Of a stretch of 64,000 bases of DNA, positions 11,491-30,741 are shown one piece after another. The stretch is from Deltaproteobacteria bacterium (GTDB lineage: Bacteria > Desulfobacterota > GWC2-55-46 > DRQE01): positions 6,231 to 70,230 of the forward strand of contig WGFM01000032.1 of assembly GCA_015492245.1 (NCBI GenBank), read 5' to 3'. The position numbers were made by a program, and so were the translations under genes. The notes beneath the pieces are model-generated. The model worked only from the letters and a program-made list of their open reading frames with translations, did not search any database and was not told where the DNA came from. How positions within the stretch are numbered: position 1 is the first letter of the stretch; the number at the start of each line of letters is the position of its first letter.

Positions 11491-11527
11491 GGGATAAAGA
11501 GGACATTCATGGTGTTTTTCTAATGGC

Positions 11528-12124: not shown

Positions 12125-12197
12125 TTCTCTATCTCCACCCCTTTCTATCCATTAAGTCTATACCCATAGGGATGGAAGGGCAAGAATTTTTTAGGGC

Positions 12198-12227
12198 TTG
12201 ACACAGCTACTCCCATTCCTGTAAGTT
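12198..12227 (+). promoter_or_regulatory. Putative sigma70 promoter for nadB (TTGACA-N18-TAAGTT)
   Basis: ttgaca at 12198-12203 and taagtt at 12222-12227, in the divergent intergenic region between pgsA and nadB. RBS AGGAGG lies before the ATG at 12258. Confidence 0.35.
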
Positions 12228-12257
12228 TTTTAGAATACACAGGAGGTTGTTACCCCC

Positions 12258-13868: not shown

Positions 13869-14913
13869 GGTGAAACCTTATGGTGAAGGTTGTGCCCTTT
13901 CCCTTCTCGCTCTCCACCTCTATGTCCCCGTTGTGGTTCTCTATTACCCTGTACGCTATGGTGAGTCCAAGGCCTGCCCCTGTAACCTTTGATGTGAAGA
14001 AGGGATGAAAGATCCTTCTTGCAACCTCGCTCTCCATACCACAGCCCGTATCCCTTATCTTCACCACAAGGATATTTCCCTCTGCCGGAAGGGTGGAGAT
14101 GGTTATCTCGCCCTTCCTGTCTATGGCATCTATGGAGTTATGCAGCAGGTTCAGAAGGGCAACCCGTAGATGAGCACTATCCATCTCGAACTCTGGCACC
14201 CCTGGCATGAGCTCTGTCTTTATTGTAATATCCTTCTCACCAATGAACTTTCTGGCCTCTTCTACCGCCTCCTCTATAACCTGGTTTATGTTACCAGGAC
14301 GCATCCTTGGGGTCAGAATACCCTTGTATTCATCTATCCTCTCCATCATCTTCTCGAGCCTCTCCACATAGGCCATCATGACCTCAAGGTATTTCCTGTG
14401 GTCAGGGTTTGTCTCGTGCTCATAGAGGCGCCTTGCCATCCCCCCTATGCTCACAAGTGGGTTACGAACCTCGTGGGCTATCTGGTCTACCATCTCGCCG
14501 AGGACGGCCATCTTCTCTGCCTCCCTGAGTTTTGTCTGCAGCATCTTGACCCTCAAAAGAGACCTTACCCTCGCACTCACCTCCACGAGGCTGTAGGGCT
14601 TGACTATGTAGTCTTCGGCACCCATCTCAAGCCCCATGACCTTGTCATCCAGTTCACCCCTTGCAGTCAGCATTATTACGGATATGTAGCGTGTGCGCTC
14701 GTCGGACTTGAGACGCCTGCACATCTCATAGCCATCCATCCGTGGCATCATGATGTCAAGAAGGACGAGGTCGGGCCTGAACTTTTCAACCTTCTCAAGC
14801 CCCTCTACTCCATCCTTTGCGGTGTCCACCTGGTAGCCGTCTGCCGTCATCTTCTCGGAGAGCAGAAAACGGCTCTTCTCGTTATCATCAACAATGAGTA
14901 TTCTTGGTTTCAT
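13831..14913 (-). CDS. Hybrid two-component protein: N-terminal receiver domain fused to HisKA + HATPase_c histidine kinase (no sensor or TM domain)
   Basis: REC signature ILIVDDNE...[10 protein letters not shown]...DYIVKP. HisKA H-box IAHEVRNPL. HATPase block DTGCGM...GAGLGLTIA. 3' end overlaps nadB by 38 bp (convergent). Confidence 0.8.
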
Positions 14914-16622: not shown

Positions 16623-17213
16623 CTACCCTTTCTTCTCCCCGATGCTGGAAGCATCCTCAGTAGAAAACCTTTCGATGAGCCTGTTCAGTCTATCCGTCGC
16701 ATGACCTGTGCCCCCTTCTTTTTCGAGTACCGAGCCAATGGCCTTCAACTCCCTGACAAGTTCCTCATGCAATGCCATATCCTGCTCCCTTCTCTGCTGC
16801 AGGTGGTCTGCGAGCCTGTTCACCACATCCTCGAGTTCTCTGAACTCGTCACCCTTCCTCAACCTCATGCGCACATGGAAGTTACCCTTAAGGAGTTCTT
16901 CCAGTGTTCTCTCAACCCTGTATACGGGCCCTGCAACCCTGTGGGATGCCAGTATAACCTGTATGCCCACAAGAAGGGCTATGACCACCACTGCCGGCCA
17001 CAGAACCTTATGGAGGCTCAATATGGCGTAGGATACCATTTCCTTCTCGTATATGCTCGTTGCAGACTGCAGTTCCATCCACAGGGGATAGAATATCAGC
17101 ATACCCAGTATGATGGAATATATGATAAGGGATATTACTATCGTAAGGGTTGCCTTTATCTGGTAGGCTGGTTTTATGAGTTTTTTCTTTCTGCGAAAGA
17201 AGGGATGGCCCAT
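16623..17213 (-). CDS. Membrane protein with two TM helices and HAMP-like linker domain
   Basis: Two TM helices then an amphipathic HAMP-like segment HRVAGPVYRVERTLEELLKGNFHVRMRLRKGDEFRELEDVVNRLADHL. No output domain. Confidence 0.5.
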   Translation of the reverse strand: MGHPFFRRKKKLIKPAYQIKATLTIVISLIIYSIILGMLIFYPLWMELQSATSIYEKEMVSYAILSLHKVLWPAVVVIALLVGIQVILASHRVAGPVYRVERTLEELLKGNFHVRMRLRKGDEFRELEDVVNRLADHLQQRREQDMALHEELVRELKAIGSVLEKEGGTGHATDRLNRLIERFSTEDASSIGEKKG

Positions 17214-17340
17214 GGTTAATTCCTCGTTACCATGAGATGATAAAACAATTGTCCCCCTCTGTCAAACATAAAAAAGCCGTCCCATCCTGCGGTTATTTGC
17301 CTGATGGAACGGCTGTATTCTTCGTCCCCGACAATGTGCC

Positions 17341-18498
17341 TTATCCCTTCATGGCCTTTATGAGCACCCCTGCAACCTCTGGCCTTGAGAACTCTGGCGG
17401 AGGTATCTCACCCTGTCTTAGCATCTCACGCACCTTTGTTCCAGAAAGGGTTATGTGGTCATGGGAGTCATGGGGGCAGGTCTTGTATGAAGCCATACCG
17501 CCACATCTTTTGCAGTAGAATGTGTAGTCGAAAAAGAGCGGAGTTATGCCTATCTTTTCGGGATCGAACTCGTCGAATATGTAGTGTGCATCGAATGTGC
17601 CGTAGTAGTTGCCCACACCTGCATGGTCTCTACCCACTATGAAGTGGGTGCACCCGTAGTTCTTGCGTATAAGGGCATGGAACACGGCCTCTCTGGGGCC
17701 TGCATACCTCATTGCCGCAGGAAACACAAGGAGCATCACCCTGTCCTTTGGATAGTAGTTCTCCATGAGGACCTCGTAGCAGCGCATCCTCACATCTGCA
17801 GGTATATCGTCTGCCTTGGTCTCACCCACAAGGGGGTGTATCATTAGTCCATCCACCACTTCGAGGGCACACTTCTGTATGTACTCGTGGGCACGGTGTA
17901 TGGGGTTACGGGTCTGAAAGCCCACCACCCTCTTCCATCCACGTTCCTGGAAGAGGGCCCTCGTCTGGGCAGGGTCAAGTCTGTATTGTTTGAAGTCCTC
18001 ATGTTCTGGCCTCTCTATGAGTGAGACCTTTCCACCAAGGAGCATATCTCCTGACTGGTAGAGTCTCTTTACCCCTGGGTGTGCCTCCTCCCTTGTGCCG
18101 TATACCTGGAGGGCCTCTTTATCCTTGTCGTGGGGGAATACCTCCTCTACCGCCATAAGGGCCAGTATGGTGCCATCTTCGCTGGTAAGGGCCACATCTT
18201 CGCCCTCTTTTATGGTGTCTGCGGTCTCTTTCGAGACCGCAAGGGTTACCGGAATGGTCCATGGCAGCCCACCTGCAAGGTGCATGGTGTCCATGGTGGA
18301 GTGGTAGTCCTCTTTTGTCATGAAGCCCTCGAGGGGGCTGTATGCACCTGTTGATATAAGCTCCAGATCAGATATTTCTTTTGGGCTGATGGCTATCTTC
18401 CTTAGCCCCTCTGCCCTCTTTCTCGCCTCCGTGAGCTCATCGCCTTTCAGCCTTCTGTCAACGAGCCTTCCCCCGTGGGGTGCAATGGTCTCTTTCAC
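17341..18498 (-). CDS. sat: Sulfate adenylyltransferase (ATP sulfurylase), homo-oligomeric type without APS-kinase domain
   Basis: 385 aa. [23 protein letters not shown] and PUA-like N-terminal domain are ATP-sulfurylase signatures. Confidence 0.9.
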
Positions 18499-18546
18499 CC
18501 TTTCGTACCTCCTTGAGTAGTCTTTGGTAGCAGAGTATACTCTGGC

Positions 18547-19242
18547 TTACTGGTGCAGCCCGCACTCGGTCTTTTCTTTGCCAGCCCATCTGCCTGCCCT
18601 GGGGTCCTCGCCTGGATGGACGGGCCTTGTGCAGGGCTGGCAGCCTATGCTGGGATAGTTCTGGTCATGGAGCACATTGTATGGAACATCGTTATCCTTT
18701 ATGTAGTTCCATACATCGTCGTATGTCCATGCAACAAGCGGGTTTATCTTTACAAGGCCGAACCTGTTGTCCCATGTAACAACCGGGGCATTCGCCCTTG
18801 TTGGGGACTGCTCTCTCCTTATACCTGTTATCCATGCCTTGAGGTCCTTGAGGGCTGCCTCGAGGGGGCGCACCTTTCTTATCCTACAGCACTCATCAGG
18901 GTTTGTCTCCCAGAGCTTTGGGCCATACTTCTCTTCCATCTCCTCGAGGGTAATTTCTGCCTCGTACTTTTCGGGCTGTATGCCGTACTTCTCCTTCACC
19001 CTCTCTATCACATCGTAGGTCTCCTTGAAAAGCAGCCCTGTATCGAGGTAGAAGATCCTGGCATCCTTCCTTATCTTGACGAGCATATCCAGGAGCACCA
19101 CATCCTCTGCACCGAAGCTGCATGCAAGTGATATGTGGGGATGAAAGTTGTCAAGCGCCCACCCGATTACTTCCTGTGGGGATTTGCCCTCGAAGGAATC
19201 ACTTGTCTTTTTCAGTTCTTCTTCTGTCCACACTTTCTCCAT
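18547..19242 (-). CDS. cysH: Adenylylsulfate (APS) reductase, thioredoxin-dependent CysH family with Fe-S Cys cluster
   Basis: PAPS_reduct fold (SFGAEDVVLLDM). CC (ECCRIRK) plus C-terminal CQPCT pattern typical of APS- rather than PAPS-reductases. Catalytic ECGLH tail. Confidence 0.85.
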   Translation of the reverse strand: MEKVWTEEELKKTSDSFEGKSPQEVIGWALDNFHPHISLACSFGAEDVVLLDMLVKIRKDARIFYLDTGLLFKETYDVIERVKEKYGIQPEKYEAEITLEEMEEKYGPKLWETNPDECCRIRKVRPLEAALKDLKAWITGIRREQSPTRANAPVVTWDNRFGLVKINPLVAWTYDDVWNYIKDNDVPYNVLHDQNYPSIGCQPCTRPVHPGEDPRAGRWAGKEKTECGLHQ

Positions 19243-19248
19243 CTTCTC

Positions 19249-19722
19249 CTATACCTCCTCTTCGTCGAATATTTCCACCCTGCAGGATACCCGCTCCTTC
19301 AACTCATCCATCATCGAAGAAGAGAAGTATCTCCTCAGGGTGGTTGTCTTCTTCCTTATAGTTATTATAAGCTCTATGGAATATTTTTCTATTGTTTTTT
19401 TGATGATCTCGATAAAATCTCCCTCTTCCATCAGGGGTTCGAACTCCACGCCCTCTTCCATGGCCTTTATCTGCACCTTGCCGAGTTCTTCATAGCCCCG
19501 TTGTCTGGACTCCTTCATTATGGCCTCTGACAGCTGTGTAGAGGGCTTGTCCCCTATGAAGCCCACATCTGAGAACCGCTCGAGCGCCTCTTCTGCAACG
19601 GCCCTGTCGAGTATGTAGAGGGCGTAGAGCATGGCACCCTCTTTCTTTGCGGTCCTTACCGCATGTTCTATTGCCCTCTCGGATCTTCTCGAGCCCGGTA
19701 TAACGAGCACTATCCCCTTCAC
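19249..19722 (-). CDS. Universal stress protein (UspA family)
   Basis: GTG start at 19720-19722 preceded by GGAGGG RBS. USP alpha/beta signature IVLVIPGSRRSERAIEHAV...IELIITIRKK. Overlaps stop of the upstream transporter by 4 nt. The track's 283-aa ORF is an out-of-frame read-through. Confidence 0.65.
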   Translation of the reverse strand: MKGIVLVIPGSRRSERAIEHAVRTAKKEGAMLYALYILDRAVAEEALERFSDVGFIGDKPSTQLSEAIMKESRQRGYEELGKVQIKAMEEGVEFEPLMEEGDFIEIIKKTIEKYSIELIITIRKKTTTLRRYFSSSMMDELKERVSCRVEIFDEEEV

Positions 19723-21152
19723 CTCAACCCTCCGAGCCCTATGAGCGGCCAGTAGAACCTTGCCACGAGGTTGAAGACCACCCAAGAGGTTATGCTCATT
19801 ATGACACCTGCCTTTGCCATGTCCCTGATCGTAAGGTATGTGGAGGATACAGCTATGGCGTTTGCAGGTGTCGAAAGGGGCAGTGTGAAGGCAAGCCCTG
19901 CGGGCACCGCTATGGCATAGGTTACGAGCACAGGGTCTATGTTGACCCCTCCGGTAAGCCCTATTCCCACAGGCAGAAGTATGGCAATCACTGCGGCATT
20001 GCTTATCCCCTCTGTAAAGAGCAGTGCCAGAAGGCTCAGTACCGCCACTGCAAGCCATGGCTCCACCATCCATCCACCTATCGTGGACTGGGCTATCCAC
20101 ATGGCGGCCCCACTTCTTTCAAGGGCAGTGCCCATTATTATCGCCCCTCCGTACATGAGTATTATACCCCAGTTCACATACTCCTCTATGTCCTTCCAGC
20201 GCACAAGCCTCAACACGAAAAGGGCCACCACCGCTGCAAGGGACACCGTGGCAAGCCCAACCCTTGCGCCAAGGGTTGCCCATGCCACCACGGTAACCAC
20301 AAGGATTATGCCCACCATGTATTCATTGTAACCTATCTTTCCCATGGATTGTATACGCCTTTTGAGCACCTCGTGTGCCTTCTCCACACTGTCTATGTCC
20401 ATGGAGAACAACCTTGTAAGAAGAAAGTAACCAAACAGCAGCATTATCACCACAACGGGAAAGACCCCTACCGAGTAGCTTATGAAGTCTATGGTCCTGC
20501 CCGTGGTCTCCTTCAGTATGCCCAGGGCAAGGGGCACCCTTGCACCACCGAGGAATGTGGCGATCCCTCCTATGACGCAACCCCAGGCGAGCGAGAGAAA
20601 GAGCATCTTCGCATAGGTGGACCTACCTGGTCTCAGCCCAAGGCTCTTTGCGATCTCGAACACTATGGGAAATAGCATGGCAGCCACCGCATGTTCTGAC
20701 ATGAAGCAGGAAAGCAGCGCCGCCAGGAGGTATATGCTCAGAAGAAGCCTTGCCGGTGAACTACCGAATCTATCCATTATAACGAGGGCGATCCTGTTGG
20801 AAAGCCCTGAATGCATCACCGCACCTGCCAGTATGAAGGCACCAAGGATGAAGAATACCGCCTCGTTGCCGAAGAGCCCGTATACCTCTTCTTTTGGCAG
20901 TATGTCCACAAGCGGCACAAGTGCTATGGCAAAAAGGCTGGTTATGGCAAGGGGTATTATGTTGGACACCCACAGTATAAGACACAGGATGAACACCGCT
21001 ATGGCGTTCTTGCCCTCAGGGGTAAGCCCCTCGGGGGTGGGCATCTTTATGAGGTAATAGAACCCTGCCGCAAGGAGCACAAAGAAGGCAGGCCGAAGCC
21101 CCTTCAAGACAAGCAGCACCCATATGGACCTTCTGTCTATCTCTACAGCCAT
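19719..21152 (-). CDS. DASS/SLC13-family anion:sodium symporter (putative sulfate permease)
   Basis: 477 aa, about 12-14 TM helices, duplicated-repeat architecture with SNxA/TNxA-like hairpin tips (ISNAAVIAILLP). Genomic context with usp-cysH-sat. Confidence 0.7.
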   Translation of the reverse strand: MAVEIDRRSIWVLLVLKGLRPAFFVLLAAGFYYLIKMPTPEGLTPEGKNAIAVFILCLILWVSNIIPLAITSLFAIALVPLVDILPKEEVYGLFGNEAVFFILGAFILAGAVMHSGLSNRIALVIMDRFGSSPARLLLSIYLLAALLSCFMSEHAVAAMLFPIVFEIAKSLGLRPGRSTYAKMLFLSLAWGCVIGGIATFLGGARVPLALGILKETTGRTIDFISYSVGVFPVVVIMLLFGYFLLTRLFSMDIDSVEKAHEVLKRRIQSMGKIGYNEYMVGIILVVTVVAWATLGARVGLATVSLAAVVALFVLRLVRWKDIEEYVNWGIILMYGGAIIMGTALERSGAAMWIAQSTIGGWMVEPWLAVAVLSLLALLFTEGISNAAVIAILLPVGIGLTGGVNIDPVLVTYAIAVPAGLAFTLPLSTPANAIAVSSTYLTIRDMAKAGVIMSITSWVVFNLVARFYWPLIGLGGLR

Positions 21153-21208
21153 CTCTCTGTAACCCTGTTTTGAAGGAAAGGTAAGGAGGTTGCCCCTCTC
21201 TTATATTG

Positions 21209-22402
21209 TCAATCCTCTTCTATCTCCTTTACCCTGAGCTTTCGCCTCAGGGTGGAGAGCCCCCAGGCGGTCTTGAGTCCCAGCCTTGTGCCATAGAACT
21301 TTTCGATTAGCCCGCTTATCCCACCAGTTTTCTCACCTGCAATGAGTCTACCCTCTATGGGTGTGGTTACAACACTTATATCCCTCATCCAGTTCATGTT
21401 TATCCCCTTCTTCTTTACCGCCCTGTAGAGGTGTCTGTATATGGGTATTATCACCTCTGCATTAAGGGGTTCTATCCTCAGGGCCCCACCAGGGCGTGGC
21501 CTGTATATGGGCAATATGGGCACCACGCCCATGTCTGTGAGAAAGTCTATGCCCATGCATGTGGAGCCAGGGGGTTCAAGCCCCACTATGAGGTGTGAGG
21601 CAACGGTGCCATTTGGAAATATGTCTGCCGCATATCTCAATGCCTCTATGTATCTTTTTCTGCCCACAAACCTTGCCCTGCCCGGGCAGAGTGCCTCGAA
21701 GAGCTCCTCGTCGAATATCTCGAGGTTGTAGAGCAGGGCATCTGCCCCAAGGGCATATGTCCTGTCTATCCAGTGATTGTTCTTCGGTGGAAGGGCTTCC
21801 ACTGCAACAAGGCAGTTGAACCTCTTCTTTATGGCCTCTATGTAGGGTGTGAGGAACCCTATGCCACCATCGTCGTCCTCGGTAAAGCCCGTGGAAAGGT
21901 ATATTATCTCTGACACTCCTTCCTCAAGCACTGCCGAGACGACCTCCACCACCTCGTCCACTGTATGGGTTCTGCCCGGTCTTTCATCGTATCCACCGGC
22001 ACAATAGCTGCACTCCACCTTCTTTTCGAAGAACACACACTCCTTCTTGGGTAGAATCAGCACATAGCTCCCGTGCACCGTGGCTATCTCGCTGTAGGGT
22101 GTGCCCTCTCCTGTCGTTCTCGAGAGAAACTCGGGCATTTTTACAGGCCTTACCTCCACCTCACCTGTGGTGTCTGATATGAGCCACCTTTCTCCCGCCT
22201 TCTTGAGAACATATGGAGAATCTCTGGTGAACTCCTCTCCGCAGGGCACATTCACAGGGGAACCCCCTGGAAGCACTATGTCCACTCCCTCACCTGCCCT
22301 GCCGTAGAAGGCAAGAGGGCCATCTTCCCGGGGAAGCCTTATCCCCCTGAGCATGAGGTCTATCTTCAATGTGCCGGGGTTGTTGAGGTAGCTCTTTTTC
22401 AT
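21209..22402 (-). CDS. Uncharacterised radical-SAM-like protein with non-canonical Cx8Cx2C motif and N-terminal about 110-aa extra domain
   Basis: 397 aa. KKECVFFEKKVECSYCAGGYDER cluster loop; GxIxGxxE-like IVGLEPPG; TIM-barrel-like periodicity. Its start abuts the stop of the E1 gene (22402/22403). Confidence 0.5.
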   Translation of the reverse strand: MKKSYLNNPGTLKIDLMLRGIRLPREDGPLAFYGRAGEGVDIVLPGGSPVNVPCGEEFTRDSPYVLKKAGERWLISDTTGEVEVRPVKMPEFLSRTTGEGTPYSEIATVHGSYVLILPKKECVFFEKKVECSYCAGGYDERPGRTHTVDEVVEVVSAVLEEGVSEIIYLSTGFTEDDDGGIGFLTPYIEAIKKRFNCLVAVEALPPKNNHWIDRTYALGADALLYNLEIFDEELFEALCPGRARFVGRKRYIEALRYAADIFPNGTVASHLIVGLEPPGSTCMGIDFLTDMGVVPILPIYRPRPGGALRIEPLNAEVIIPIYRHLYRAVKKKGINMNWMRDISVVTTPIEGRLIAGEKTGGISGLIEKFYGTRLGLKTAWGLSTLRRKLRVKEIEED

Positions 22403-23224
22403 CTAAGTTTCACAACTCGAGCGTTGCAGCTCGCAACTCTCCTCGTATGTTACAAGCTCTTTTATGGATGGCTCCTTGCCACAGAGCCTGCACCCGGGGT
22501 CTTTCCTTACCCTGACTTTTCTGAAGTCCATCCTCAATGCATCGAATATGAGGAGCCTTCCCGAAAGCCCCTCGCCTATCCTGAGTATCTCCTTTATGGT
22601 CTCAACAGCCTGCAACACCCCTATGACCCCTGCAAGGGCACCGAGTACGCCTGCCTCCTGGCAGCTTGGCACAAGCCCTGGTGGAGGGGGCTCTGGATAG
22701 AGACACCTGTAACATGGCGAGCCCTCATGGGGCTTGAAGACCGAAAGCTGCCCCTCGAAACGGAACATGCTGCCAGATACAAGAGGCCTATGCTCGAAAA
22801 AGGCCGCATCGTTTACGAGAAACCTTGTAGGGAAGTTGTCCGAGCCATCGAGCACAATATGGAACCCCCTTATGACCTCCCTTATGTTCTCCCTTGTGAG
22901 CCTCTCGTTGTAGGTTATAACCTCTACATCAGGGTTTAACTCCTCTATGGTCTTCTTTGCAGAGAGTGCCTTCGGGGTGCCAACCCTGGGGGTGGAGTGT
23001 ATTATCTGACGCTGAAGGTTGCTCAGATCCACCCTGTCTCCATCGGCGATCCCCACGGTGCCAACCCCTGCAGCTGCAAGATACATGAGCGCAGGCGAAC
23101 CAAGCCCACCTGCACCAACCACAAGGACCCTGGCATCGAGCAACTTTCGCTGCCCCCTGCCACCAACCTCTGGAAGTATGATGTGCCTGGAATACCGCTC
23201 TATCTGCTCCTCTGTAAAATCCAT
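22403..23224 (-). CDS. MoeZ/MoeB/ThiF-family E1-like sulfur-carrier-protein adenylyltransferase
   Basis: RYSRHIILPEVGGRGQRKL, nucleotide loop VVGAGGLGS, two CxxC pairs (CYRC...CRLC). Confidence 0.85.
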   Translation of the reverse strand: MDFTEEQIERYSRHIILPEVGGRGQRKLLDARVLVVGAGGLGSPALMYLAAAGVGTVGIADGDRVDLSNLQRQIIHSTPRVGTPKALSAKKTIEELNPDVEVITYNERLTRENIREVIRGFHIVLDGSDNFPTRFLVNDAAFFEHRPLVSGSMFRFEGQLSVFKPHEGSPCYRCLYPEPPPPGLVPSCQEAGVLGALAGVIGVLQAVETIKEILRIGEGLSGRLLIFDALRMDFRKVRVRKDPGCRLCGKEPSIKELVTYEESCELQRSSCET

Positions 23225-23297
23225 TTAAACCTGCCTCCTTACACCACAAAAGATAAGAACGAATGCTAAATATACCCTCTGTTCTCCTGAAAAGGAT

Positions 23298-23702
23298 CTA
23301 TTTCTCGGCTATTTCTTCTTCTACAAACACATCGGCATCATCCAGCCTCCAGCACCTGACCTCAGTCTCTCTCCCGCCCCTTACTCCCACGATGAGGTAG
23401 AAGTATTCGGGCCATGCCCTGGTTCTGTCGAACTCAGATGGTTCTGCCGGGTGATCCGGGTGTGAGTGGTATATGCCGATTACCGCAAGCCCCCTTTTTG
23501 CTGCCTCTTTTTCCACCATGAGGAATTCCCGTGGGTCTATCTCGTAGCGGTCCTGCGCCCTTTCGGTGTTGATATTTTTAACCTTCACCGCCTCTAACAC
23601 CACCCCTTCCTTACCCAGAAGCAGTCCGCAGCATTCATTGGGGTAAGAGGCCCTTGCATTCTCACGCACCTTTTCTGCTGCATCCCTGACTATGCGAAGC
23701 AT
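23298..23702 (-). CDS. JAMM/MPN+ metalloprotease (Mec+/CysO-hydrolase-like)
   Basis: 134 aa with canonical JAMM motif E...HSHPDHPAEPSEFD (HxHx7Sx2D). Confidence 0.85.
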   Translation of the reverse strand: MLRIVRDAAEKVRENARASYPNECCGLLLGKEGVVLEAVKVKNINTERAQDRYEIDPREFLMVEKEAAKRGLAVIGIYHSHPDHPAEPSEFDRTRAWPEYFYLIVGVRGGRETEVRCWRLDDADVFVEEEIAEK

Positions 23703-23712
23703 CTTTCCGTAG

Positions 23713-24672
23713 TCAATCCTCCCACACCCTTGTGGAGAGGTACTTGTCTCCGCCGTCCGGGAACATGACGACTATGAGCCCCTCTTTGAGTGTCCTTGCA
23801 AGCCTCAATGCCCCGAGTAGAGCTGCCCCTGAGGACTGGCCTGCAAGTATGCCCTCTTCTTTTGCAAGCCTTCTTGTCATCTCGTAGGACTCTTCGGTGT
23901 CTGCCGGTATCTTATCGTCCAGTTCTTCCTCGTGGTATATGCCAGGCACGATGCTCGATGCCATGTGTTTAAGGCCCTCGAGCCCGTGAAGGGGGCTATC
24001 GGGCTCAACTGCTATGACCTTTATATCCTTTCTGAACTCCTTCAATCTTCTTCCAGTGCCCATTATGGTTCCCCCTGTGCCTATGCTTGCCACAAAGTGG
24101 GTTATTCTGCCCTCTGTCTGTGCGATTATCTCTGGCCCGGTGGTCTCGTAATGGGCAAGGGGGTTGGAGGGGTTGTTGTATTGATCAAGCTTGCAGTATT
24201 TCTCGGGGTTGTCCACATATAGCTTCCAGCAAAGCCTTATGGCCCCATCGGAGCCCTCCAAGGGGTCAGAGAATATCACCTTAGCCCCGTAGGCGCTGAG
24301 CATCTTCTTTCGCTCCTCACTCACATTGCCTGGCACCACAAGCTCCACCCTGTAGCCCTTGTGTGCGCCTATCCATGCATAGGCAATGCCTGTGTTGCCG
24401 GATGTTGAATCGAGTATTATCTTGTCCTTCGTAAGACGGCCTGCCTTCTCGGCGTCCTCTATCATCTTCAGTGCTGGCCTGTCCTTTACAGAACCCCCTG
24501 GATTGTAGCCCTCGAGCTTGGCATATATCTCCACCCCGGGAGGTATATCCCTGGTTACATTCCTTATATTGACGAGCGGGGTGTTGCCAACAAGGTCTAT
24601 AACAGAGCCCACCGCCTCCCTTACCCCTCCTGACCTTGTCCGGTAGTCCGCCCCTGCAACCCTTGTATCCAT
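23713..24672 (-). CDS. cysM: Cysteine synthase, CysM/CysK family (likely carrier-protein-thiocarboxylate-dependent)
   Basis: PLP-lysine motif GGSVKDR, GNTGIA, SIGTGGT. Start reassigned to the internal ATG at 24670-24672 (MDTRVAG...), 6 nt after RBS AGGGAGG. Confidence 0.85.
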   Translation of the reverse strand: MDTRVAGADYRTRSGGVREAVGSVIDLVGNTPLVNIRNVTRDIPPGVEIYAKLEGYNPGGSVKDRPALKMIEDAEKAGRLTKDKIILDSTSGNTGIAYAWIGAHKGYRVELVVPGNVSEERKKMLSAYGAKVIFSDPLEGSDGAIRLCWKLYVDNPEKYCKLDQYNNPSNPLAHYETTGPEIIAQTEGRITHFVASIGTGGTIMGTGRRLKEFRKDIKVIAVEPDSPLHGLEGLKHMASSIVPGIYHEEELDDKIPADTEESYEMTRRLAKEEGILAGQSSGAALLGALRLARTLKEGLIVVMFPDGGDKYLSTRVWED

Positions 24673-24722
24673 ACAAAAACCTCCCTGAAGTAAAGACAAA
24701 ATACCTTACTAACTTAGTCAAG

Positions 24723-24750
24723 TTTATAATAGATTAGTATTTTTGTCAAG
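24723..24750 (-). promoter_or_regulatory. Internal sigma70-type promoter TTGACA-N16-TATAAA upstream of cysM
   Basis: Minus strand reads TTGACAaaaatactaatctatTATAAAct, within the 88-nt gap between the NIL gene stop and cysM. Confidence 0.4.
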
Positions 24751-24787
24751 AACTTTAACAAAAAAAGGCACTTACGGTGGGAGGGTC

Positions 24788-25027
24788 TTACTCTATTATA
24801 TCGAGTTCTATGGGTTCCACCTTAACGCCTTTGTCGATGAAGAACTGTATTGCCCTGCCTATCTCCTCTTCGCTACCCTCGAGCTCAAGGGCCACAAGCC
24901 CCATGGTATCTGACACACATGCCTGCCGTATGTTGGTAACCACACGGAAGCGCTTGCCCGCCTCGTATATGAGGGGTTCCTTCACGAGCTCCCTCGGGTA
25001 TGTAAGGTAGACCCTTTTTTTCAACAC
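24788..25027 (-). CDS. Stand-alone NIL-domain protein (MetN C-terminal-like; sulfur-amino-acid-associated)
   Basis: 79 aa. PLIYEAGKRFRVVTNIRQACVSD.MGLVALELEGSEEEIGRAIQFFIDKGVKVEPIE matches the RF.V..NI..A...G.M.LEL.G....A...L...V.VE NIL pattern. Confidence 0.55.
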   Translation of the reverse strand: MLKKRVYLTYPRELVKEPLIYEAGKRFRVVTNIRQACVSDTMGLVALELEGSEEEIGRAIQFFIDKGVKVEPIELDIIE

Positions 25028-25302
25028 ATGCCTCCTGCTATTGCAGGAATTATGGAGAGCTCATCACCCTCTTTGAGCTCTGTATCCAGGTTGAGCTTGA
25101 ACCGTATGTCCTCATCGTTCACATAGAGGTTTACGAACTTTCTTATAGAGCCGTCTTCCTCGCAGATGCGCTCTTTTATACCTGGATACCTCTTTTCGAG
25201 GTCATCTATGACCTCTCTTACTGTTGTGCCCTCTGCAGTAACCTCGTCCTTGCCTTCTGTAAGTTTCCTCAGTGGTGTGGGTATCCTTACCTTTACAGCC
25301 AT
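25021..25302 (-). CDS. MoaD/ThiS/CysO-family sulfur carrier protein with C-terminal GG followed by 2-residue extension (..AIAGG-MC)
   Basis: 93-aa beta-grasp. C-terminal DELSIIPAIAGGMC resembles MoaD ...VAIIPPVSGG but with MC after the di-glycine. Confidence 0.75.
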   Translation of the reverse strand: MAVKVRIPTPLRKLTEGKDEVTAEGTTVREVIDDLEKRYPGIKERICEEDGSIRKFVNLYVNDEDIRFKLNLDTELKEGDELSIIPAIAGGMC

Positions 25303-25332
25303 ACCTTGAGTTACCTCCTTTTTGATGGGGTT

Positions 25333-25575
25333 TTATTCGCCTCTTTCTATAAGGAGCCTGAAGTGGTCGTCCTCTTTCTTCACATCTATTATCCTGTGTC
25401 CCTCTTCTTTTATGCTCTTTGGCACATTCTGGATGGGCTCTCCACTGTCGAGCACCACCTCGAGCACCTCGCCCTTCTCCATGCTCTCGAGCTTGAGCTT
25501 GGTCTTAACGAAGTTCATGGGGCAGAGCACCCCTCTCAGGTCAAGGGTATCTACCGGTCTTACTTCTGCTGACAT
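25333..25575 (-). CDS. tusA: TusA/SirA-like sulfurtransferase
   Basis: 80 aa with LDLRGVLCPMNFVKTK active-site Cys motif (CPxP variant). Confidence 0.7.
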   Translation of the reverse strand: MSAEVRPVDTLDLRGVLCPMNFVKTKLKLESMEKGEVLEVVLDSGEPIQNVPKSIKEEGHRIIDVKKEDDHFRLLIERGE

Positions 25576-26534
25576 GCTGCCTCCTTTGCTCCGAGCACCC
25601 TGTCGCCGAAGACATCTTTCATGAATTCAAGGTACTTATCGACCCCCACGCGTTCCAGGGTCTTTCCAATCCTCTCACCCCTCATGCCATTTGCCATATA
25701 CCACTCTATGGTCTTCTCGATTACCTCTGCCACCTTCTCGTCAGGCACAAAGAGTGCCACCTCTTCTGCCTCCATGGGCCATCTACCGTGCTTTCCACCA
25801 ACCCGTACGAGGTGTCCATAGCGCTTTGCCCTCCAGGCACCTGTTGGGCATGCACGGATGCAATCGCCACAGTAGATGCATTTTTCAGGATAGTAGATGG
25901 GTTTACCCGTATCGGGATCACTCTCTATGGCGTCCTCCTTACATGCCTCGGCACATATGGTGCAGCCCGTGCATGTGGGTTCCTCCCACTCGGGCTCCAC
26001 CACACCCTGAAAGCCCAGGTCCATCTCTCTGGTTCTTGCACAATCTATCGGGCAGCCAGAGAAGGATATTTTGAACTTGTGGTGTGTGGGTGTGCCGAAG
26101 AACCTTTCATCCACCATCTTTGCAAGGGCCTGGGTGTCGGTAAGCCCATTCGGGTTGTACTCACAGCCGCCACAGGCAGTGGGCACCCTCACCCTTGGCC
26201 CGCAGGAGGCAACCTTCCAGCCTATGGCCTCAAGCTCCTTCACAAGCTGGGGGAACTCCTTGTAGTCCACATAGAGTATCTCTATGGATTGGCGAAAGCT
26301 CAGGTGTATGACGCCCTTCTTGCTGTACTTGTGGGCTATCTTCGAGATTTCTATGAGCTTATCTGTTGGAACCCTTCCCCCAGGGCATCGAAGCCTCACG
26401 GTGAAAAGATCACGCTGGCGCTGTTTTATAAAGCCACCTGTCTTGAGCTCGCCAAAATCGAGTTTTTTTGTCTCTCCGTCGAGGCTTACCTCGACCCTTG
26501 TGGTCTTATCCTCAATGAAACGGTCCATGGACAC
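25560..26534 (-). CDS. Small sulfite/nitrite-reductase-family protein (siroheme/4Fe-4S-binding half-domain) with inserted 2x[4Fe-4S] ferredoxin domain; assimilatory-type low-MW sulfite reductase / AsrC-like
   Basis: NiR/SiR ferredoxin-like half domain. Siroheme-cluster cysteines SCGPRVRVPTACGGC...SGCPIDCA. Ferredoxin motifs CTGCTICAEAC and CIYCGDCIRACP. Confidence 0.7.
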   Translation of the reverse strand: MSMDRFIEDKTTRVEVSLDGETKKLDFGELKTGGFIKQRQRDLFTVRLRCPGGRVPTDKLIEISKIAHKYSKKGVIHLSFRQSIEILYVDYKEFPQLVKELEAIGWKVASCGPRVRVPTACGGCEYNPNGLTDTQALAKMVDERFFGTPTHHKFKISFSGCPIDCARTREMDLGFQGVVEPEWEEPTCTGCTICAEACKEDAIESDPDTGKPIYYPEKCIYCGDCIRACPTGAWRAKRYGHLVRVGGKHGRWPMEAEEVALFVPDEKVAEVIEKTIEWYMANGMRGERIGKTLERVGVDKYLEFMKDVFGDRVLGAKEAACQQK

Positions 26535-26599
26535 ATCTCTCCTTTCAAAAAGATGTAGACAACTATGATAACAAAAAACCCCCTGGGGGTAAAGGAGGA

Positions 26600-27853
26600 T
26601 TAGCCCTCCAGGGCATATTTTTCATCCATCTTCTTTACCAGCTCATCGAAGTCCTTGAGGCTTGCGTTTATGGTGGGCACCTCTTCGAGTCTTCCATGGA
26701 GTGCCTCCTGGGTCTTGAGCCCGTTGCCTGTTACGGAGACCACTATGGACTCGTCCCTGGGGATTCGGCCCTGTTCTATGAGCTTCTTTGTAACCCCCAG
26801 GGTAACCCCACCGGCTGTCTCTGCAAATATGCCCTCCCTTTCTGCCAGAAGCTTTATCGCCTCTACGATTTCCTCATCCGACACATCCTCTGCCCATCCG
26901 CCACTCTCTCTTATGGTCTTCGCAGAGTAGTAGCCATCGGCAGGGTTGCCTATCGCAAGGGATTTTGCAATGGTGTTGGGTCTTACAGGCTCTATGAGCT
27001 CTTTACCCCTCTTTACCGCTGTAACTATGGGTGCACAGCCCGTTGCCTGTGCCCCGTAGACCTTCGCATCCATGTTGTCCACAAGCCCGAGCATATGAAG
27101 CTCTCTGTATGCCTTCCACACCTTCGTTATGAGCGAGCCCCCTGCCATTGGCACAACCGTGTGTCTGGGCAGCCTCCAGCCCAGCTGTTCTGCAATCTCG
27201 AAGCCGAAGGTCTTCGAGCCCTCGGCATAATAGGGCCTTATGTTTATGTTCACGAATGCCCAGCCGTATTTGCCCGCAATCTCACTGCACAGGCGGTTTA
27301 CCTCATCGTATGTGCCCCTTATACCCACGACCCTTGCCCCGTATACGAGGGTTCCCACAATCTTCGTGGGCTCGAGATCGAAGGGTATGAACACATAGCT
27401 CTCCATACCACAGGCAGTGGCATTTGCAGCCACAGAGTTCGCAAGGTTGCCTGTGGACGCACAGGAGGCCACCTTGAAGCCCATCTCCAGTGCCCTGGAG
27501 ATGGCAACAGAGACCACCCTGTCCTTGAAAGAGAGGGTGGGATAGTTTACCGCATCGTTCTTTATGTAGAGCTCCTTTACACCCAGGGCCTTCTCAAGGT
27601 TTCTCGCCCTTATAAGGGGCGTAAAACCAACTTCTCTGCCCACCGTGGGCTCTCCATCTATGGGTAGAAGCTCCCTGTAGCGCCACATGTTCTGTGGCCT
27701 CTTCTCTATGGTCTCTTTCGACAGGCTCTTCTTGATTTTACCATACTCGTAGACCACCTCGAGGGGACCAAAGCAGTACTCGCACACATGCAAAGCCTTC
27801 CTGGGATACTCCCTGCCACACTCTCTGCATCTCAGTGCCTTCATAAAGCCCAT
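26600..27853 (-). CDS. thrC: Threonine-synthase-family PLP enzyme with N-terminal zinc ribbon; candidate phosphohomoserine sulfhydrylase given SAM-riboswitch control
   Basis: CRECG...CEYC ribbon and PLP-lysine motif TLSFKDR, ThrC fold. Directly downstream of a SAM-I riboswitch. Confidence 0.75.
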   Translation of the reverse strand: MGFMKALRCRECGREYPRKALHVCEYCFGPLEVVYEYGKIKKSLSKETIEKRPQNMWRYRELLPIDGEPTVGREVGFTPLIRARNLEKALGVKELYIKNDAVNYPTLSFKDRVVSVAISRALEMGFKVASCASTGNLANSVAANATACGMESYVFIPFDLEPTKIVGTLVYGARVVGIRGTYDEVNRLCSEIAGKYGWAFVNINIRPYYAEGSKTFGFEIAEQLGWRLPRHTVVPMAGGSLITKVWKAYRELHMLGLVDNMDAKVYGAQATGCAPIVTAVKRGKELIEPVRPNTIAKSLAIGNPADGYYSAKTIRESGGWAEDVSDEEIVEAIKLLAEREGIFAETAGGVTLGVTKKLIEQGRIPRDESIVVSVTGNGLKTQEALHGRLEEVPTINASLKDFDELVKKMDEKYALEG

Positions 27854-27879
27854 CTATTCATCCTCCCTTGTTTTTTGGA

Positions 27880-28078
27880 TAAAAAAAACCTCTTCCTTAC
27901 TTTTTCCCTTTGAAGTTAAGAAGAGGTCTTAACGACTCTTCTTATCTTCCAGGAGCCCTTTAACTGGAAGACTCCTGCTGGAATTAGCACCGGGCGTTTC
28001 ATCCCCCAAGGGGGATAAAACCGGTTGCTGTGGCTTCACGGGGCCAGTTCCCTCCACCACTCTGGATAAGAAGATTAT
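27880..28078 (-). promoter_or_regulatory. SAM-I (S-box) riboswitch: aptamer (about 27936-28076) plus intrinsic terminator (27881-27927)
   Basis: Minus strand reads UCUUAUCCAGAGUGGUGGAGGGAACUGGCCCCGUGAAGCCACAGCAACC...GGUGCUAAUUCCAGCAG...GGAAGAUAAGAAGAG, matching S-box conserved positions. Then hairpin GACCUCUUC...GAAGAGGU + UUUUUUUU, then RBS GGGAGGA and the thrC ATG. Confidence 0.85.
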
Positions 28079-28189
28079 CCCTGTTCAATTGTTAGAGAAT
28101 CTTATAATACACTATGGAAGGATTGTCAAGGAAAAATAAAGGGTTCAGGACAATCAAAGGTAGAACCTCCTCTGTGTAGCCACAAATTT

Positions 28190-29071
28190 CTAAGTGTTAT
28201 CGAGCAGGAACTCCTTGAACTTCCTTGTTGCAGGTGAAGGACTTCTCTTTGAATGTGTTATTATATGGAAGTATCGTTCTATGCCGACACCCTTTATCTT
28301 GACCTCCTTGAGCATCTTTCTTCTCACATGCTCACATATGGCAAGTCTGGACATGAAGGCAAGCCCGAGCCCGCTCTTTATTGCACCCACAAGGGCCTGT
28401 GTGGAGCCCATCTCTGCCACTATGTTGAGTCCTTCAGGCTCTATGCCTGCCTCTCTTATGGCCCTTTCTGTCTCCATCCTGGTTCCAGAGCCCCTTTCCC
28501 TTACCACAAGTGGTATATGGGAAAGCTCTTCCCTTGAGACCCTCGATTTCTTGAAGGAAGAAGGTGCTGCCAGCACTATCTCGTCGGATACAAACCTTTC
28601 CAGCAATAGATGTTTATCCTTCACCACCGAGCCCACCACCCCTATGTCCACCCTTCCCTCTGACACCATGTGGCTTACCTTTTCTGTATCCGCTATGGTT
28701 AGTGATGGAAAGACCCCCGGGTACAGTCTTCTGAACTCTGCTATCCTCTGTGGCAGTATGTACTCCCCTGGTATGGTGCTCGCCCCTATTGTGAGTGTAC
28801 CCTGCACCGAGCCGCCGAACTCTTTCAGGGACTGGCTTGCCTCCTCTTTGAGTCTTACAATCTCCTTGGCGTATCTGTAGAGTATGGCTCCCTCCTTGGT
28901 GGGCACCACCTTTCTGCCGAGTCTGTCCAGCAGTCTTGTGGTGAGGGTTTCCTCAAGGGTTCTTATGTGAATACTTATGGTGGGTTGGGTAAGATTCAGA
29001 GACTCTGCAGCCTGGGAAAATCCTCCTTCCTCAACAACTCTGCAGAATATCTCAAGAAGTCTCAACTCCAC
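28190..29071 (-). CDS. LysR-family transcriptional regulator
   Basis: N-terminal wHTH MELRLLEIFCRVVEEGGFSQAAESLNLTQPTISIHIRTLE, C-terminal LysR substrate-binding domain. Confidence 0.85.
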   Translation of the reverse strand: MELRLLEIFCRVVEEGGFSQAAESLNLTQPTISIHIRTLEETLTTRLLDRLGRKVVPTKEGAILYRYAKEIVRLKEEASQSLKEFGGSVQGTLTIGASTIPGEYILPQRIAEFRRLYPGVFPSLTIADTEKVSHMVSEGRVDIGVVGSVVKDKHLLLERFVSDEIVLAAPSSFKKSRVSREELSHIPLVVRERGSGTRMETERAIREAGIEPEGLNIVAEMGSTQALVGAIKSGLGLAFMSRLAICEHVRRKMLKEVKIKGVGIERYFHIITHSKRSPSPATRKFKEFLLDNT

Positions 29072-29234
29072 GGGCTGCCCCTCTTTTTTTTATTCTTTCT
29101 TTCTCCTTCTTCAGAGAGCAGTCGGGGCACGCATACATCTTGTGGTGCTTTATAGTAAGTCTATCATATTCTTTATCGAGGGCAACCCTTATGACAACAT
29201 CACACTCTTTACCACAGAAATCACACCTTAACAT
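29052..29234 (-). CDS. Small zinc-ribbon protein (CxxC...CxxC)
   Basis: 60 aa, MLRCDFCGKEC...YACPDCS. RBS AAGGAGG 9 nt upstream of the ATG at 29232-29234. Overlaps neighbours on both sides. Confidence 0.45.
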   Translation of the reverse strand: MLRCDFCGKECDVVIRVALDKEYDRLTIKHHKMYACPDCSLKKEKERIKKRGAARGVETS

Positions 29235-29463
29235 ACCCTTTCTCCTCCTTCCTGTATACGGCGGAAGGATGCACCCTGTGAGCCGAAAGTACGGAGAGGG
29301 CCTCCTCGAGGTCCTCTTCTCTTTTAACCGTTATGACCAGATCGCAGTACTTCGTAAGGGTTCGTGGTGCAGGGTCAAGCCGTATATCGACACCCTGGTC
29401 CTTCAGAAGACTTTCTGCCTTCAGCACCTTATGTGTGGTTGAGAAGGCAAGTATATGTTTCAT
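29221..29463 (-). CDS. DUF3343-like small protein (putative Se/S carrier-like family)
   Basis: 80 aa. MKHILAFSTTHKVLKAESLLKDQGVDIRLDPAPR pattern recalled for DUF3343. Confidence 0.4.
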   Translation of the reverse strand: MKHILAFSTTHKVLKAESLLKDQGVDIRLDPAPRTLTKYCDLVITVKREEDLEEALSVLSAHRVHPSAVYRKEEKGYVKV

Positions 29464-29472
29464 GGACAGAGC

Positions 29473-30741
29473 TCATCTGTAGGTTCCACAGAGTCTCTCC
29501 GTGTAGAAAGGAAAACCCTCGCACAGCCTTCTCACCTCTTCTTTTATACGGCAGAGAAGTTTCTCGTCGTCAGGGGCTTTTAGCACCCTGTCTATGAAGT
29601 CTGCTATTGTGCGCATCTCTCCCTCTTTCATGCCCCTCGTGGTAACTGCGGGAACCCCTATCCTTATCCCGCTTGTTACGAAGGGGCTTCTCGTCTCAAA
29701 AGGTATGGTGTTCTTGTTTACCGTTATGCCTGCCCTGTGGAGGGCCTCTTCGGCCTCCTTGCCGGTAAGGCCTGTCTTTGTAAGGTCCACGAGCATAAGA
29801 TGGGTATCTGTTCCACCTGATATTAGCTCGTAGCCACGGCTCAAGAGTTCTTCTGCAAGGGTCTTTGCATTCTTCAGTATCTGCTTCTGATACTCCTTGA
29901 ACCCAGGCTCAAGGGCCTCTTTCAGTGCCACGGCCTTTGCGGCTATTATGTGCATAAGGGGGCCACCCTGTATGCCAGGGAATATCTCCTTGTCCATGGC
30001 CTTTGCGAACTCCTCCCTGCACATAATCATGCCTGCCCTTGGGCCTCTGAGTGTCTTGTGTGTGGTGGTGGTTACAAACTCTGCATGGGGCACGGGGCTT
30101 GGATGAAGCCCTGCTGCCACAAGCCCTGCTATATGGGCTATGTCTACCATTATGTGGGCACCAACCTCGTCTGCGATCTGGCGGAATGCCTCAAAATCTA
30201 TAACCCTGGGATAGGCACTCGCACCAACCACTATGAGTTTTGGCCTGTGCTTTCCTGCGAGCTCACGAACCTGGTCCATATCTATACGGTGATCCTCCTT
30301 TCTTACGCCATAGAACAGGAAGTCGTAGAGCCTGCCAGAAAAGTTGACAGGGCTTCCATGGGTGAGATGCCCACCATGGGTAAGGTCCATGCCCAGCACC
30401 CTATCCCCCGGCTTCAGGGTGGCCATGTAGACCGCCATGTTCGCCTGGGAGCCGGAGTGGGGCTGCACATTCACATGCTCACAGCCGAACAGCTTCTTCG
30501 CCCTCTCTATGGCGAGCCTCTCGGCTATGTCCACAAACTCGCATCCACCGTAGTAGCGCCTGCCAGGATAACCCTCTGCATACTTGTTTGTGAGCACACT
30601 TCCCACGGCCTCGAGCACCCGCTCGCTTACAAGGTTTTCAGAGGCGATGAGTTCCAGCTTGTATTCCTGCCTCTCTGTCTCAAGCCTTATCGCCTCGTAT
30701 ATCTGTGGATCGAATTCTTTAAGCAGTGATTCTTTCCTCAT
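29473..30741 (-). CDS. glyA: Serine hydroxymethyltransferase
   Basis: 422 aa. SHMT signatures [29 protein letters not shown]-lysine region [15 protein letters not shown]. Confidence 0.95.

Follow-up and report, generated by a model that had tools for sequence, protein, structure and literature searches.

Which metabolic step is controlled by a riboswitch for S-adenosylmethionine (SAM) when the gene behind it carries the label of a threonine synthase? The question is raised by a 64,000-nucleotide stretch of DNA from a Deltaproteobacteria bacterium (NCBI GenBank assembly GCA_015492245.1, contig WGFM01000032.1, positions 6,231 to 70,230 of the forward strand), which we refer to as the window and whose first letter is position 1. 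An initial annotation, made from the letters alone, had placed a SAM-I (S-box) riboswitch with an intrinsic terminator at 27880..28078, in the minus-strand leader of a threonine synthase (ThrC)-like gene at 26600..27853, and had argued that this gene acts in methionine rather than in threonine biosynthesis. The answer that we favour, at a probability of roughly 0.8, is that a SAM-I transcription attenuator heads a MetM-type gene, the product of which would form homocysteine from O-phosphohomoserine and the thiocarboxylate of a small carrier protein; SAM binding, termination in vivo and the MetM reaction are predictions from the sequence. All features of the window described below lie on the minus strand.

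The leader of the ThrC-like gene contains a SAM-I riboswitch

Searched in full against Rfam, the window has a single match, to RF00162 (SAM-I/S-box), at 27939..28072 (-) with 83.8 bits and an E-value of 2.6e-18; the gathering score of this family is 44.4 bits, and the initial annotation had predicted a strong score. The alignment spans positions 1-108 of the 108 model positions without truncation and agrees with the model at all upper-case, i.e. highly conserved, consensus positions. The P3 and P4 stems are somewhat longer than in the consensus, and the excess is scored as insertions. With permissive Rfam filters, the match was reproduced in the region 17000..29600, and no further regulatory RNA was found there at E<=1. 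The S-box motifs that had originally drawn attention to the leader are all present on the minus strand (CUUAUCCAGAGUGGUGGAGGGAACUGGCCCCGUGAAGCCACAGCAACC ... GGUGCUAAUUCCAGCAG ... GAUAAG). According to the covariance-model alignment and the fold, P1 is formed by 28072..28065 paired with 27946..27939, P3 lies at 28029..27986 and P4 at 27977..27950, while P2 (28060..28030) carries the kink-turn motifs: GGA on the 5' strand and UGAA on the 3' strand flank P2a/P2b in agreement with the Rfam consensus. Complementarity points to a pseudoknot between CUGG in the P2 loop (28047..28044) and CCAG in J3/4 (27981..27978). The minimum free energy (MFE) structure of the window leader is the four-way junction P1-P4, on which the initial annotation had staked its assignment, and the pairs of this junction covary among 63 homologues (see below). 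The 231-nt leader is more stable than 200 of 200 dinucleotide shuffles (z = -4.15). Taken by its covariance-model match, fold and covariation, 27881..28072 (-) is a bona fide SAM-I riboswitch, whose aptamer is predicted to bind SAM.

The remainder of the leader holds the parts of an expression platform. An intrinsic terminator at 27881..27930 consists of a 13-bp interrupted stem with the core CCUCUUCUU/AGGAAGAGG and, behind it, a U8 run (27888..27881); the isolated hairpin has a folding energy of -17.9 kcal/mol (z = -2.89 relative to shuffles). An antiterminator (27912..27949) can be drawn between GAAGAUAAGAAGAG (27949..27936), which overlaps the P1 3' strand, and CUCUUCUUAACUUC (27925..27912), which is the terminator 5' strand. 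The antiterminator pairs 13 of 14 positions and can coexist with neither P1 nor the terminator. The enforced antiterminator fold has -74.3 kcal/mol compared to -75.4 kcal/mol for P1 plus terminator, a difference of 1.1 kcal/mol, and the antiterminator becomes the MFE structure once the transcript is truncated before the terminator 3' strand. The ribosome binding site (RBS) GGGAGG (27862..27867), located 8 nt ahead of the ATG at 27853, was read by eye, as was a putative sigma-70-type promoter at 28101..28129, which comprises TTGACA (28129..28124), a 17-nt spacer and TATAAG (28106..28101). This promoter was passed over by a consensus promoter scan; its final -10 base is G instead of T. The stem ACCUCUUC/GAAGAGGU, the U8 run, the RBS and the start codon named by the initial annotation are thus all in place, its range takes in aptamer plus terminator, and its gene coordinates are exact. 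The mutually exclusive pairings of P1, antiterminator and terminator, together with the terminators found in most of the related leaders, support its view of the expression platform as an intrinsic-terminator device, i.e. a transcription attenuator of classic S-box design that would act by termination in vivo.

The aptamer recurs upstream of related genes in many phyla

For the comparison with other organisms, 24 close homologues of the ThrC-like protein were aligned and the alignment was used to scan one genome per species. The resulting set comprises 80 related loci, with ThrC-like proteins 62-79% identical, from Thermodesulfobacteriota, Verrucomicrobiota, Zetaproteobacteria, Brocadiaceae (Brocadia), Nitrospirota, NC10, Omnitrophota, Elusimicrobiota and others. 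Rfam placed RF00162 just 5' of the ThrC-like gene in five of seven loci tested (60.7-96 bits), and a purpose-built covariance model from six aptamers, with which the 80 loci were searched, detected a SAM-I element upstream and on the strand of the gene in 62. The aptamer lies 69-328 nt ahead of the ThrC-like start in 58 loci (overall median about 140 nt), and another gene intervenes in 4 of the 62.

Covariation was counted on 63 aligned aptamers for named pairs in P1, P2a, P2b, the P3 base, P4 and the pseudoknot. As a MAFFT/RNAalifold consensus of the six aptamers misaligned P4, the P4 pairs were named on the covariance-model alignment instead. Standard pairs occupy 92.4% of the cells versus 83.5% in shuffles, and 0 of 500 shuffles attained any of the covariation measures; when the partners were slid by 1-3 columns, pairing fell to 34-47%. 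Altogether, 17 pairs changed on both sides, among them four in P1, four in P2a, one in P3 and six in P4. The pseudoknot is paired in 95.2% of cells, with compensatory changes at two of its four pairs (U-A 43, A-U 9, C-G 4). Since P4 and the pseudoknot were absent from the model that made the alignment, their covariation provides independent support for the structure. Of the 58 proximal leaders, 48 have a hairpin plus U-run ahead of the start codon, as a rule with a 5' strand similar to that of P1; the other ten lack a clear terminator. These numbers suggest that the attenuation mechanism is conserved, though not universal.

The ThrC-like protein belongs to a clade of its own

The gene behind the switch codes for a ThrC-family pyridoxal 5'-phosphate (PLP) enzyme of 417 aa (26600..27853; Pfam PALP). 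The protein carries the SFKDR lysine motif and an N-terminal CxxC...CxxC zinc ribbon, the latter invariant in the alignment of the 24 close family members. Elsewhere in the family, the ThrC-like proteins of two metagenome-assembled genomes (MAGs) of Verrucomicrobiota, labelled Akkermansia (L052) and Chthoniobacteraceae (L065), have an aspartate in place of the fourth cysteine of this motif (HVCEFDFGPLE). The zinc ribbon was considered as a marker for MetM and rejected, as Cys motifs are likewise found at the start of a thrC from a haloarchaeal plasmid (38% identity).

According to Appendix 4 of the GapMind 2026 preprint (bioRxiv 10.1101/2024.10.14.618325), MetM is a homocysteine synthase that depends on the MetO thiocarboxylate and acts on O-phosphohomoserine. 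The sections of this preprint on MetM also state that the enzyme shares homology with threonine synthases and frequently bears their name by misannotation, and name Mec and MoeZ as helpers. In Streptomyces albulus, metM has an upstream SAM riboswitch, as stated in the corresponding passage of PMC12172450.

The ThrC-like proteins form a clade separate from canonical ThrC, with about 36% identity across the two groups and 52-79% inside the clade, Nonomuraea included. Both paralogues are present in three genomes, namely those of L065, L080 and Nonomuraea gerenzanensis, whose canonical ThrCs are mutually 57-63% identical. In L065, the canonical thrC adjoins a homoserine dehydrogenase gene (hom) on the opposite strand. 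In L080, a Nitrospirota MAG, five genes stand in a row at 9995..14343: one for the MetM-like protein, one for a carrier with a GG-ARQ tail, a NIL gene, the canonical thrC and a gene for a TIGR02535 'proposed homoserine kinase' (HomK type, 562 bits). The two enzymes that use O-phosphohomoserine are thus encoded beside its likely supplier. A tblastn search found no canonical thrC in the 64-kb window, and paralogy is therefore shown in the relatives; neither hom nor thrB was detected among the window genes examined by Pfam and NCBIfam.

At the N. gerenzanensis locus (L081), the order is SAM-I riboswitch (68.7 bits, Rfam), ThrC-like gene (53% identity to the window protein) and a ThiS-like gene whose product ends with GG (56%). 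The riboswitch-linked copy groups with the ThrC-like clade, and the second Nonomuraea ThrC homologue is of the canonical type. The identity of 53% is comparable to the 51.6% that PMC12172450 reports, in the part concerned with it, for a Microcystis 'ThrC' versus MetM. The Nonomuraea sequence (L081, L082) comes from PLSDB record NZ_LT559118.1, 'Nonomuraea gerenzanensis plasmid I', which is 11.85 Mb long, holds housekeeping thrC and groEL, looks chromosome-like in content and carries only 10 annotated features.

The riboswitch and the ThrC-like gene were also found in MAGs labelled Akkermansia muciniphila (L052, L059) and at locus L061. In tblastn searches, the carrier match is only 41-43% identical in L059 and L061, and L052 gave none. 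A. muciniphila is a threonine auxotroph by experiment and grows with threonine as the sole added amino acid (PMC5902328), which is circumstantial evidence that fits the ThrC-like gene not being a threonine synthase. The role in methionine rather than threonine synthesis proposed by the initial annotation for the ThrC paralogue is supported by the separate clade, the coexisting canonical thrC, the linkage to a carrier gene described next and the published MetM/MetO pair. From this combination of sequence features, the gene most likely codes for a MetM-type homocysteine synthase that uses O-phosphohomoserine and a carrier thiocarboxylate.

A sulfur carrier, a NIL protein and a JAMM protease accompany the ThrC-like gene

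A ThiS/MoaD-type sulfur carrier resembling MetO and CysO (Pfam ThiS, NCBIfam SAMP1) is encoded at 25021..25302. Its best relatives in the PDB are 4n6e_B and CysO of Mycobacterium tuberculosis (3dwg_C, E 3e-22). Among the 71 loci whose sequence extends far enough downstream, the gene immediately behind the ThrC-like gene is ThiS-like in 61. Many loci with a carrier have no CysM-like gene, e.g. those of Verrucomicrobiota and Brocadia; as the carrier follows the ThrC-like gene even there, it appears to be the partner of the ThrC-like enzyme.

The carrier gene of the window is followed by a gene for a stand-alone NIL-domain protein (24788..25027; Pfam NIL, 48 bits); the two open reading frames (ORFs) share 7 nt, read in different frames. 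Of 67 loci, 54 have a NIL gene behind the carrier gene; the Nonomuraea locus has none. In six loci (L001, L007, L009, L010, L011 and L013), the carrier ORF continues in frame past GG into NIL, and in L015 and L078 it continues into MoeB. In the literature searched, nothing relevant was found that ties NIL to MetM/MetO or to threonine synthase.

The window carrier ends with ...AIAGG-MC, and its GG terminus would thus have to be exposed by proteolysis. A JAMM/Prok-JAB metalloprotease similar to Mec and HcyD (23298..23702; Pfam Prok-JAB, 100.2 bits) is expected to trim the carrier to GG. In each locus with a nearby JAMM gene, the carrier is C-terminally extended or fused in frame to NIL or MoeB. 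Thirty-seven carriers, mostly from MAGs labelled Verrucomicrobiota, stop exactly at GG, and tblastn gave no match to the window JAMM in the sequence examined around these 37 loci. The co-occurrence of JAMM genes and carrier extensions fits a maturation of the carrier by the protease.

A MetM-type reading weighed against its alternatives

A number of observations weigh against a SAM-controlled MetM-type gene in the window. The ThrC-like protein passes the NCBIfam threonine synthase model TIGR00260 with 285.8 bits (cut-off 167.1), and its nearest neighbours among solved structures are without exception true threonine synthases (E 1e-58 to 1e-51), so that the sequence alone leaves a ThrC activity possible. 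The link to the characterised MetM of S. albulus is indirect and runs via the Nonomuraea locus of like layout at 53% identity. In the window, two inserted genes and a T-run hairpin part the carrier gene from the ThrC-like gene. The covariance-model search revealed no SAM-I element in 18 of the 80 related loci; in ten loci (L005, L010, L015, L021, L027, L058, L060, L073, L078 and L080) none was found up to 10 kb upstream, and L005 and L010 have no riboswitch of any Rfam class within 10 kb. In these ten loci, the ThrC-like gene is usually operon-internal and comes after MoeB, TusA, CysM-like or JAMM genes. As to the mode of action, some SAM-I riboswitches outside the Firmicutes act on translation, and together with the ten related leaders that lack a clear terminator this could suggest that the aptamer controls translation by sequestration of the RBS, or that it is a decayed relic. 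We regard both as very improbable: the end of the U8-tailed hairpin lies 14 nt ahead of the RBS, with which the hairpin is unpaired in the MFE structure, the antiterminator/terminator design is explicit, and every conserved position of the aptamer is intact.

If the gene coded for a genuine threonine synthase, the repression by SAM would serve as a branch-point control of how O-phosphohomoserine is shared. Besides the TIGR00260 score and the nearest structures, this is the label that the family bears in public records, and the score for NF006050 (302.7 bits) comes close to the cut-off of 303. TIGR00260, however, does not discriminate, since it gives canonical copies about 330 bits and the MetM-like copy of Nonomuraea 270, and MetM is described as a frequent victim of this very label in the GapMind sections cited above. 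Moreover, the regulatory logic would be reversed, as high SAM should favour the flow of O-phosphohomoserine to threonine, and neither the separate clade with coexisting canonical copies nor the linkage to a carrier gene would be expected; the Akkermansia-labelled MAGs, from a species that needs threonine and not methionine, add a circumstantial point. A threonine synthase is therefore improbable in our view. Slightly less improbable, yet still unlikely, is an enzyme of the ThrC fold that uses free sulfide on O-phosphohomoserine, with the carrier serving only the CysM-type synthase or another pathway. In the window, the carrier gene adjoins the CysM-like, JAMM and MoeB genes instead of the ThrC-like gene, which is directly followed by the gene for a sulfite-reductase-like protein, which would produce sulfide. 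Against this stand the position of the ThiS-like gene as the immediate downstream neighbour in most related loci, many of them without a CysM-like gene, and the MetM reaction as published, at least in Appendix 4 of GapMind 2026, which uses the MetO thiocarboxylate.

For the preferred reading, a SAM-I attenuator ahead of a MetM-type gene, we propose the following mechanism. When SAM is plentiful, it would bind to the four-way-junction aptamer and lock P1, which makes the P1 3' strand unavailable; the terminator hairpin with its U8 run would then form, and RNA polymerase would halt some 30 nt ahead of the start codon. At low SAM, the P1 3' strand (GAAGAUAAGAAGAG) would instead pair with the terminator 5' strand, and the resulting antiterminator would permit read-through into 26600..27853. 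The ThrC paralogue would carry out a PLP-dependent gamma-replacement on O-phosphohomoserine to give homocysteine; its presumed sulfur donor is the thiocarboxylate at the C-terminus of the ThiS/CysO-like carrier, whose gene lies 1.3 kb downstream. The sulfur may be supplied by way of a sulfate symporter, ATP sulfurylase, a reductase for adenosine 5'-phosphosulfate or 3'-phosphoadenosine 5'-phosphosulfate (APS/PAPS), the sulfite-reductase-like protein and TusA; for loading, the JAMM protease would trim the ...GG-MC tail and a MoeB-type E1 would activate the carrier. The CysM-type enzyme probably draws on the same carrier for cysteine.

The gene string behind the riboswitch and the reach of its control

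The ThrC-like gene is the first in a string of 13 genes. It is followed by genes for a small sulfite-reductase-like protein (25560..26534), which has NIR_SIR domains and a 2x[4Fe-4S] ferredoxin insert and matches TIGR02912 with 137 bits, below the cut-off, and for a TusA-family sulfurtransferase (25333..25575; Pfam TusA, 82.4 bits). The best NCBIfam match of the TusA-like protein is the selenium-linked YedF. Downstream of the carrier and NIL genes lies the gene for a CysM-type, PLP-dependent cysteine synthase (23713..24699), which scores above the cut-off for TIGR01136 cysKM (356.7 bits) and whose PDB matches are CysM proteins. The JAMM gene is followed by a gene for a MoeB/ThiF-type, E1-like adenylyltransferase of 273 aa (22403..23224; Pfam ThiF 272.9 bits; NF004281 321 bits, above cut-off), which is abutted by the gene for a variant radical SAM protein similar to MSMEG_0568 (21209..22402; NF045502, 172 bits). 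Pfam matches identify the remaining products as a Na+/sulfate symporter (19719..21152), an APS/PAPS reductase (18547..19242) and an ATP sulfurylase (17341..18498), with an ORF for a Usp-domain protein between symporter and reductase in the string (within 17341..21152). The gene order in L004 is the same as in the window cluster, and the variant radical SAM gene recurs in 10 related clusters, including L001, L004, L007 and loci of Zetaproteobacteria. The clustered genes would take sulfur all the way from sulfate to a protein thiocarboxylate, which two PLP enzymes of the cluster possibly use for homocysteine and cysteine.

A further paralogue of the CysK/CysM fold, with 34-45% identity to the CysM-like protein of the window, is encoded between the riboswitch and the ThrC-like gene in L007 (3603..4496), L008 (8891..9778) and L012 (1599..2489), and a paralogue of the same type follows NIL in L016, L017, L024 and L031-L033. 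Its placement behind the riboswitch suggests that it is also SAM-controlled in some lineages.

How far the control by SAM extends into the string of the window is a separate matter, which bears on the extent of the regulon and not on the identity of the element. A hairpin plus T6 (26565..26598) lies 2-25 nt beyond the stop codon of the ThrC-like gene and overlaps a putative promoter with an extended -10-like motif, TGnTATCAT (TTTACC-17-TATCAT with upstream TG). With -8 kcal/mol and z +1.33, this hairpin is weak and does not exceed shuffled sequence in stability, and its standing as a firm internal terminator was therefore downgraded. The region is possibly a weak internal terminator combined with an internal promoter. 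Should the riboswitch govern the whole 10.5-kb string from 27853 to 17341, SAM would shut off sulfur assimilation overall. All 13 genes have the same orientation with short gaps or overlaps, the post-stop hairpin is weak, and carrier and NIL genes, which directly follow the ThrC-like gene in most related loci, must be co-transcribed with it there. On the other hand, a hairpin with T6 does follow the ThrC-like stop and overlaps a promoter-like site, the TGnTATCAT motif of this site is repeated at the matching position in L004 (about 11310..11330), a second promoter-like site (TTGACA-17-TAAACT) is found ahead of the CysM-like gene, and cysteine synthesis should not hang on SAM alone. We put the odds of control over the whole string at about one in three.

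Somewhat more speculative is a scheme for the partner proteins. Tentatively, MetM/MetO outside the actinomycetes could be a three-part system with NIL as an obligatory partner, in which the carrier-GG-NIL fusions, predicted in at least six lineages, are released by JAMM like ubiquitin precursors. In the source organism of the window, a single carrier may feed both the ThrC-fold homocysteine synthase and the CysM-type cysteine synthase; the SAM switch would then gate only the homocysteine branch, and the radical SAM protein would aid sulfur delivery. No part of this scheme is described in the literature searched.

Comparison with known riboswitches and thiocarboxylate pathways

The aptamer of the window shares the P1-P4 junction, the P2 kink-turn motifs, the pseudoknot and the core nucleotides with known RF00162 riboswitches such as those of Bacillus subtilis yitJ and metI and of Thermoanaerobacter tengcongensis metF. 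The platform is alike as well, with the P1 3' strand as anti-antiterminator, and there is no structural difference besides the somewhat longer P3 and P4 stems. What differs is the host, an uncultured Thermodesulfobacteriota-like lineage instead of Firmicutes, and the regulated gene, a ThrC paralogue.

The closest functional parallel is metM-metO of S. albulus, reportedly described by Hasebe et al. in 2024 (Appl Environ Microbiol 90:e01247-24) and considered here as related in papers that cite this work. In common with it, the window has a ThrC homologue with a ThiS/MoaD-type carrier, an upstream SAM riboswitch and the functions of Mec (JAMM) and MoeZ (E1). The exact layout is found in Nonomuraea, at the identities to the window enzyme and carrier given above (53% and 56%). 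The window differs by the sulfite-reductase-like gene and tusA between enzyme and carrier, by the GG-MC tail of the carrier and the NIL gene that follows it, and by the clustered genes for JAMM, E1, CysM-type enzyme, radical SAM protein and sulfate assimilation. With the CysO-CysM-Mec+-MoeZ system of M. tuberculosis, the window shares the logic of a thiocarboxylate carrier and the genes for a CysO-like carrier, a CysM-type enzyme, JAMM and E1. Its CysM-like protein, however, is closer to the enterobacterial CysM (253 bits) than to that of M. tuberculosis (210 bits), its E1 of 273 aa is without a rhodanese domain, and the cluster adds a ThrC paralogue predicted to form homocysteine.

Wolinella succinogenes is said to make methionine by a protein-thiocarboxylate pathway of HcyS, HcyD, HcyF and MetY, reportedly described by Krishnamoorthy and Begley in 2011, whose work is cited in PMC5764234. 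Like the window, this pathway is said to have a C-terminally extended carrier trimmed by a JAMM protease, an E1-like activator, sulfide from a sulfite reductase and clustered sulfate-assimilation genes. The acceptor enzyme there is MetY, an O-acetylhomoserine sulfhydrylase of fold type I, whereas in the window it is of the ThrC fold (type II) and expected to use O-phosphohomoserine. A genetic link between a NIL domain and homocysteine synthesis in anaerobes is also known from the DUF39 plus NIL/ferredoxin pathway (MA1821/MA1822) of methanogens and Desulfovibrio (PMC5764234). In contrast to that system, the genes of the window cluster showed no DUF39 or COG2122 by Pfam and NCBIfam, and the NIL protein of the window is without a ferredoxin domain and has a ThiS-like carrier as partner.

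The arrangement of a SAM riboswitch with a MetM-like gene is known from Streptomyces and shown here to be widespread across phyla. Beyond the literature searched are the cross-phylum pairing of switch and MetM-like gene, the conserved and sometimes fused NIL, the radical SAM gene that recurs in related clusters and the placement within a full set of sulfate-assimilation genes. The riboswitch itself is routine, and its practical worth lies in annotation, as a marker: threonine synthase is the label that NCBIfam and public records give to a family which, from its regulation, paralogy and linkage, reads as a homocysteine synthase. Taken at face value, the label leads to wrong predictions of threonine prototrophy and methionine auxotrophy in metabolic reconstructions. 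The locus would offer a compact cluster that leads from sulfate via a protein thiocarboxylate to cysteine and homocysteine, with a SAM switch at its head; its conserved partners, NIL and the radical SAM protein, are candidates for steps that are still missing.

Other features of the window

No tRNA genes were found in the 64 kb, and all ORFs for which the Pfam and NCBIfam searches gave a match sit on the minus strand. Immediately upstream of the riboswitch, at 28190..29463 (-), there are genes for a LysR regulator and a Se_S_carrier-like protein (PF11823) as well as a 60-aa ORF; the regulator matches the 'selenium metabolism-associated' type of NCBIfam with 304 bits (cut-off 250). Farther downstream, at 2102..8525 (-), two ORFs of the ATP-citrate-lyase/citryl-coenzyme A (CoA) type, one with CoA-ligase and citrate-synthase domains and the other with citrate-binding and ATP-grasp domains, lie beside a gene for a monomeric isocitrate dehydrogenase. 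This group of genes hints at a reductive tricarboxylic acid cycle in the source organism.

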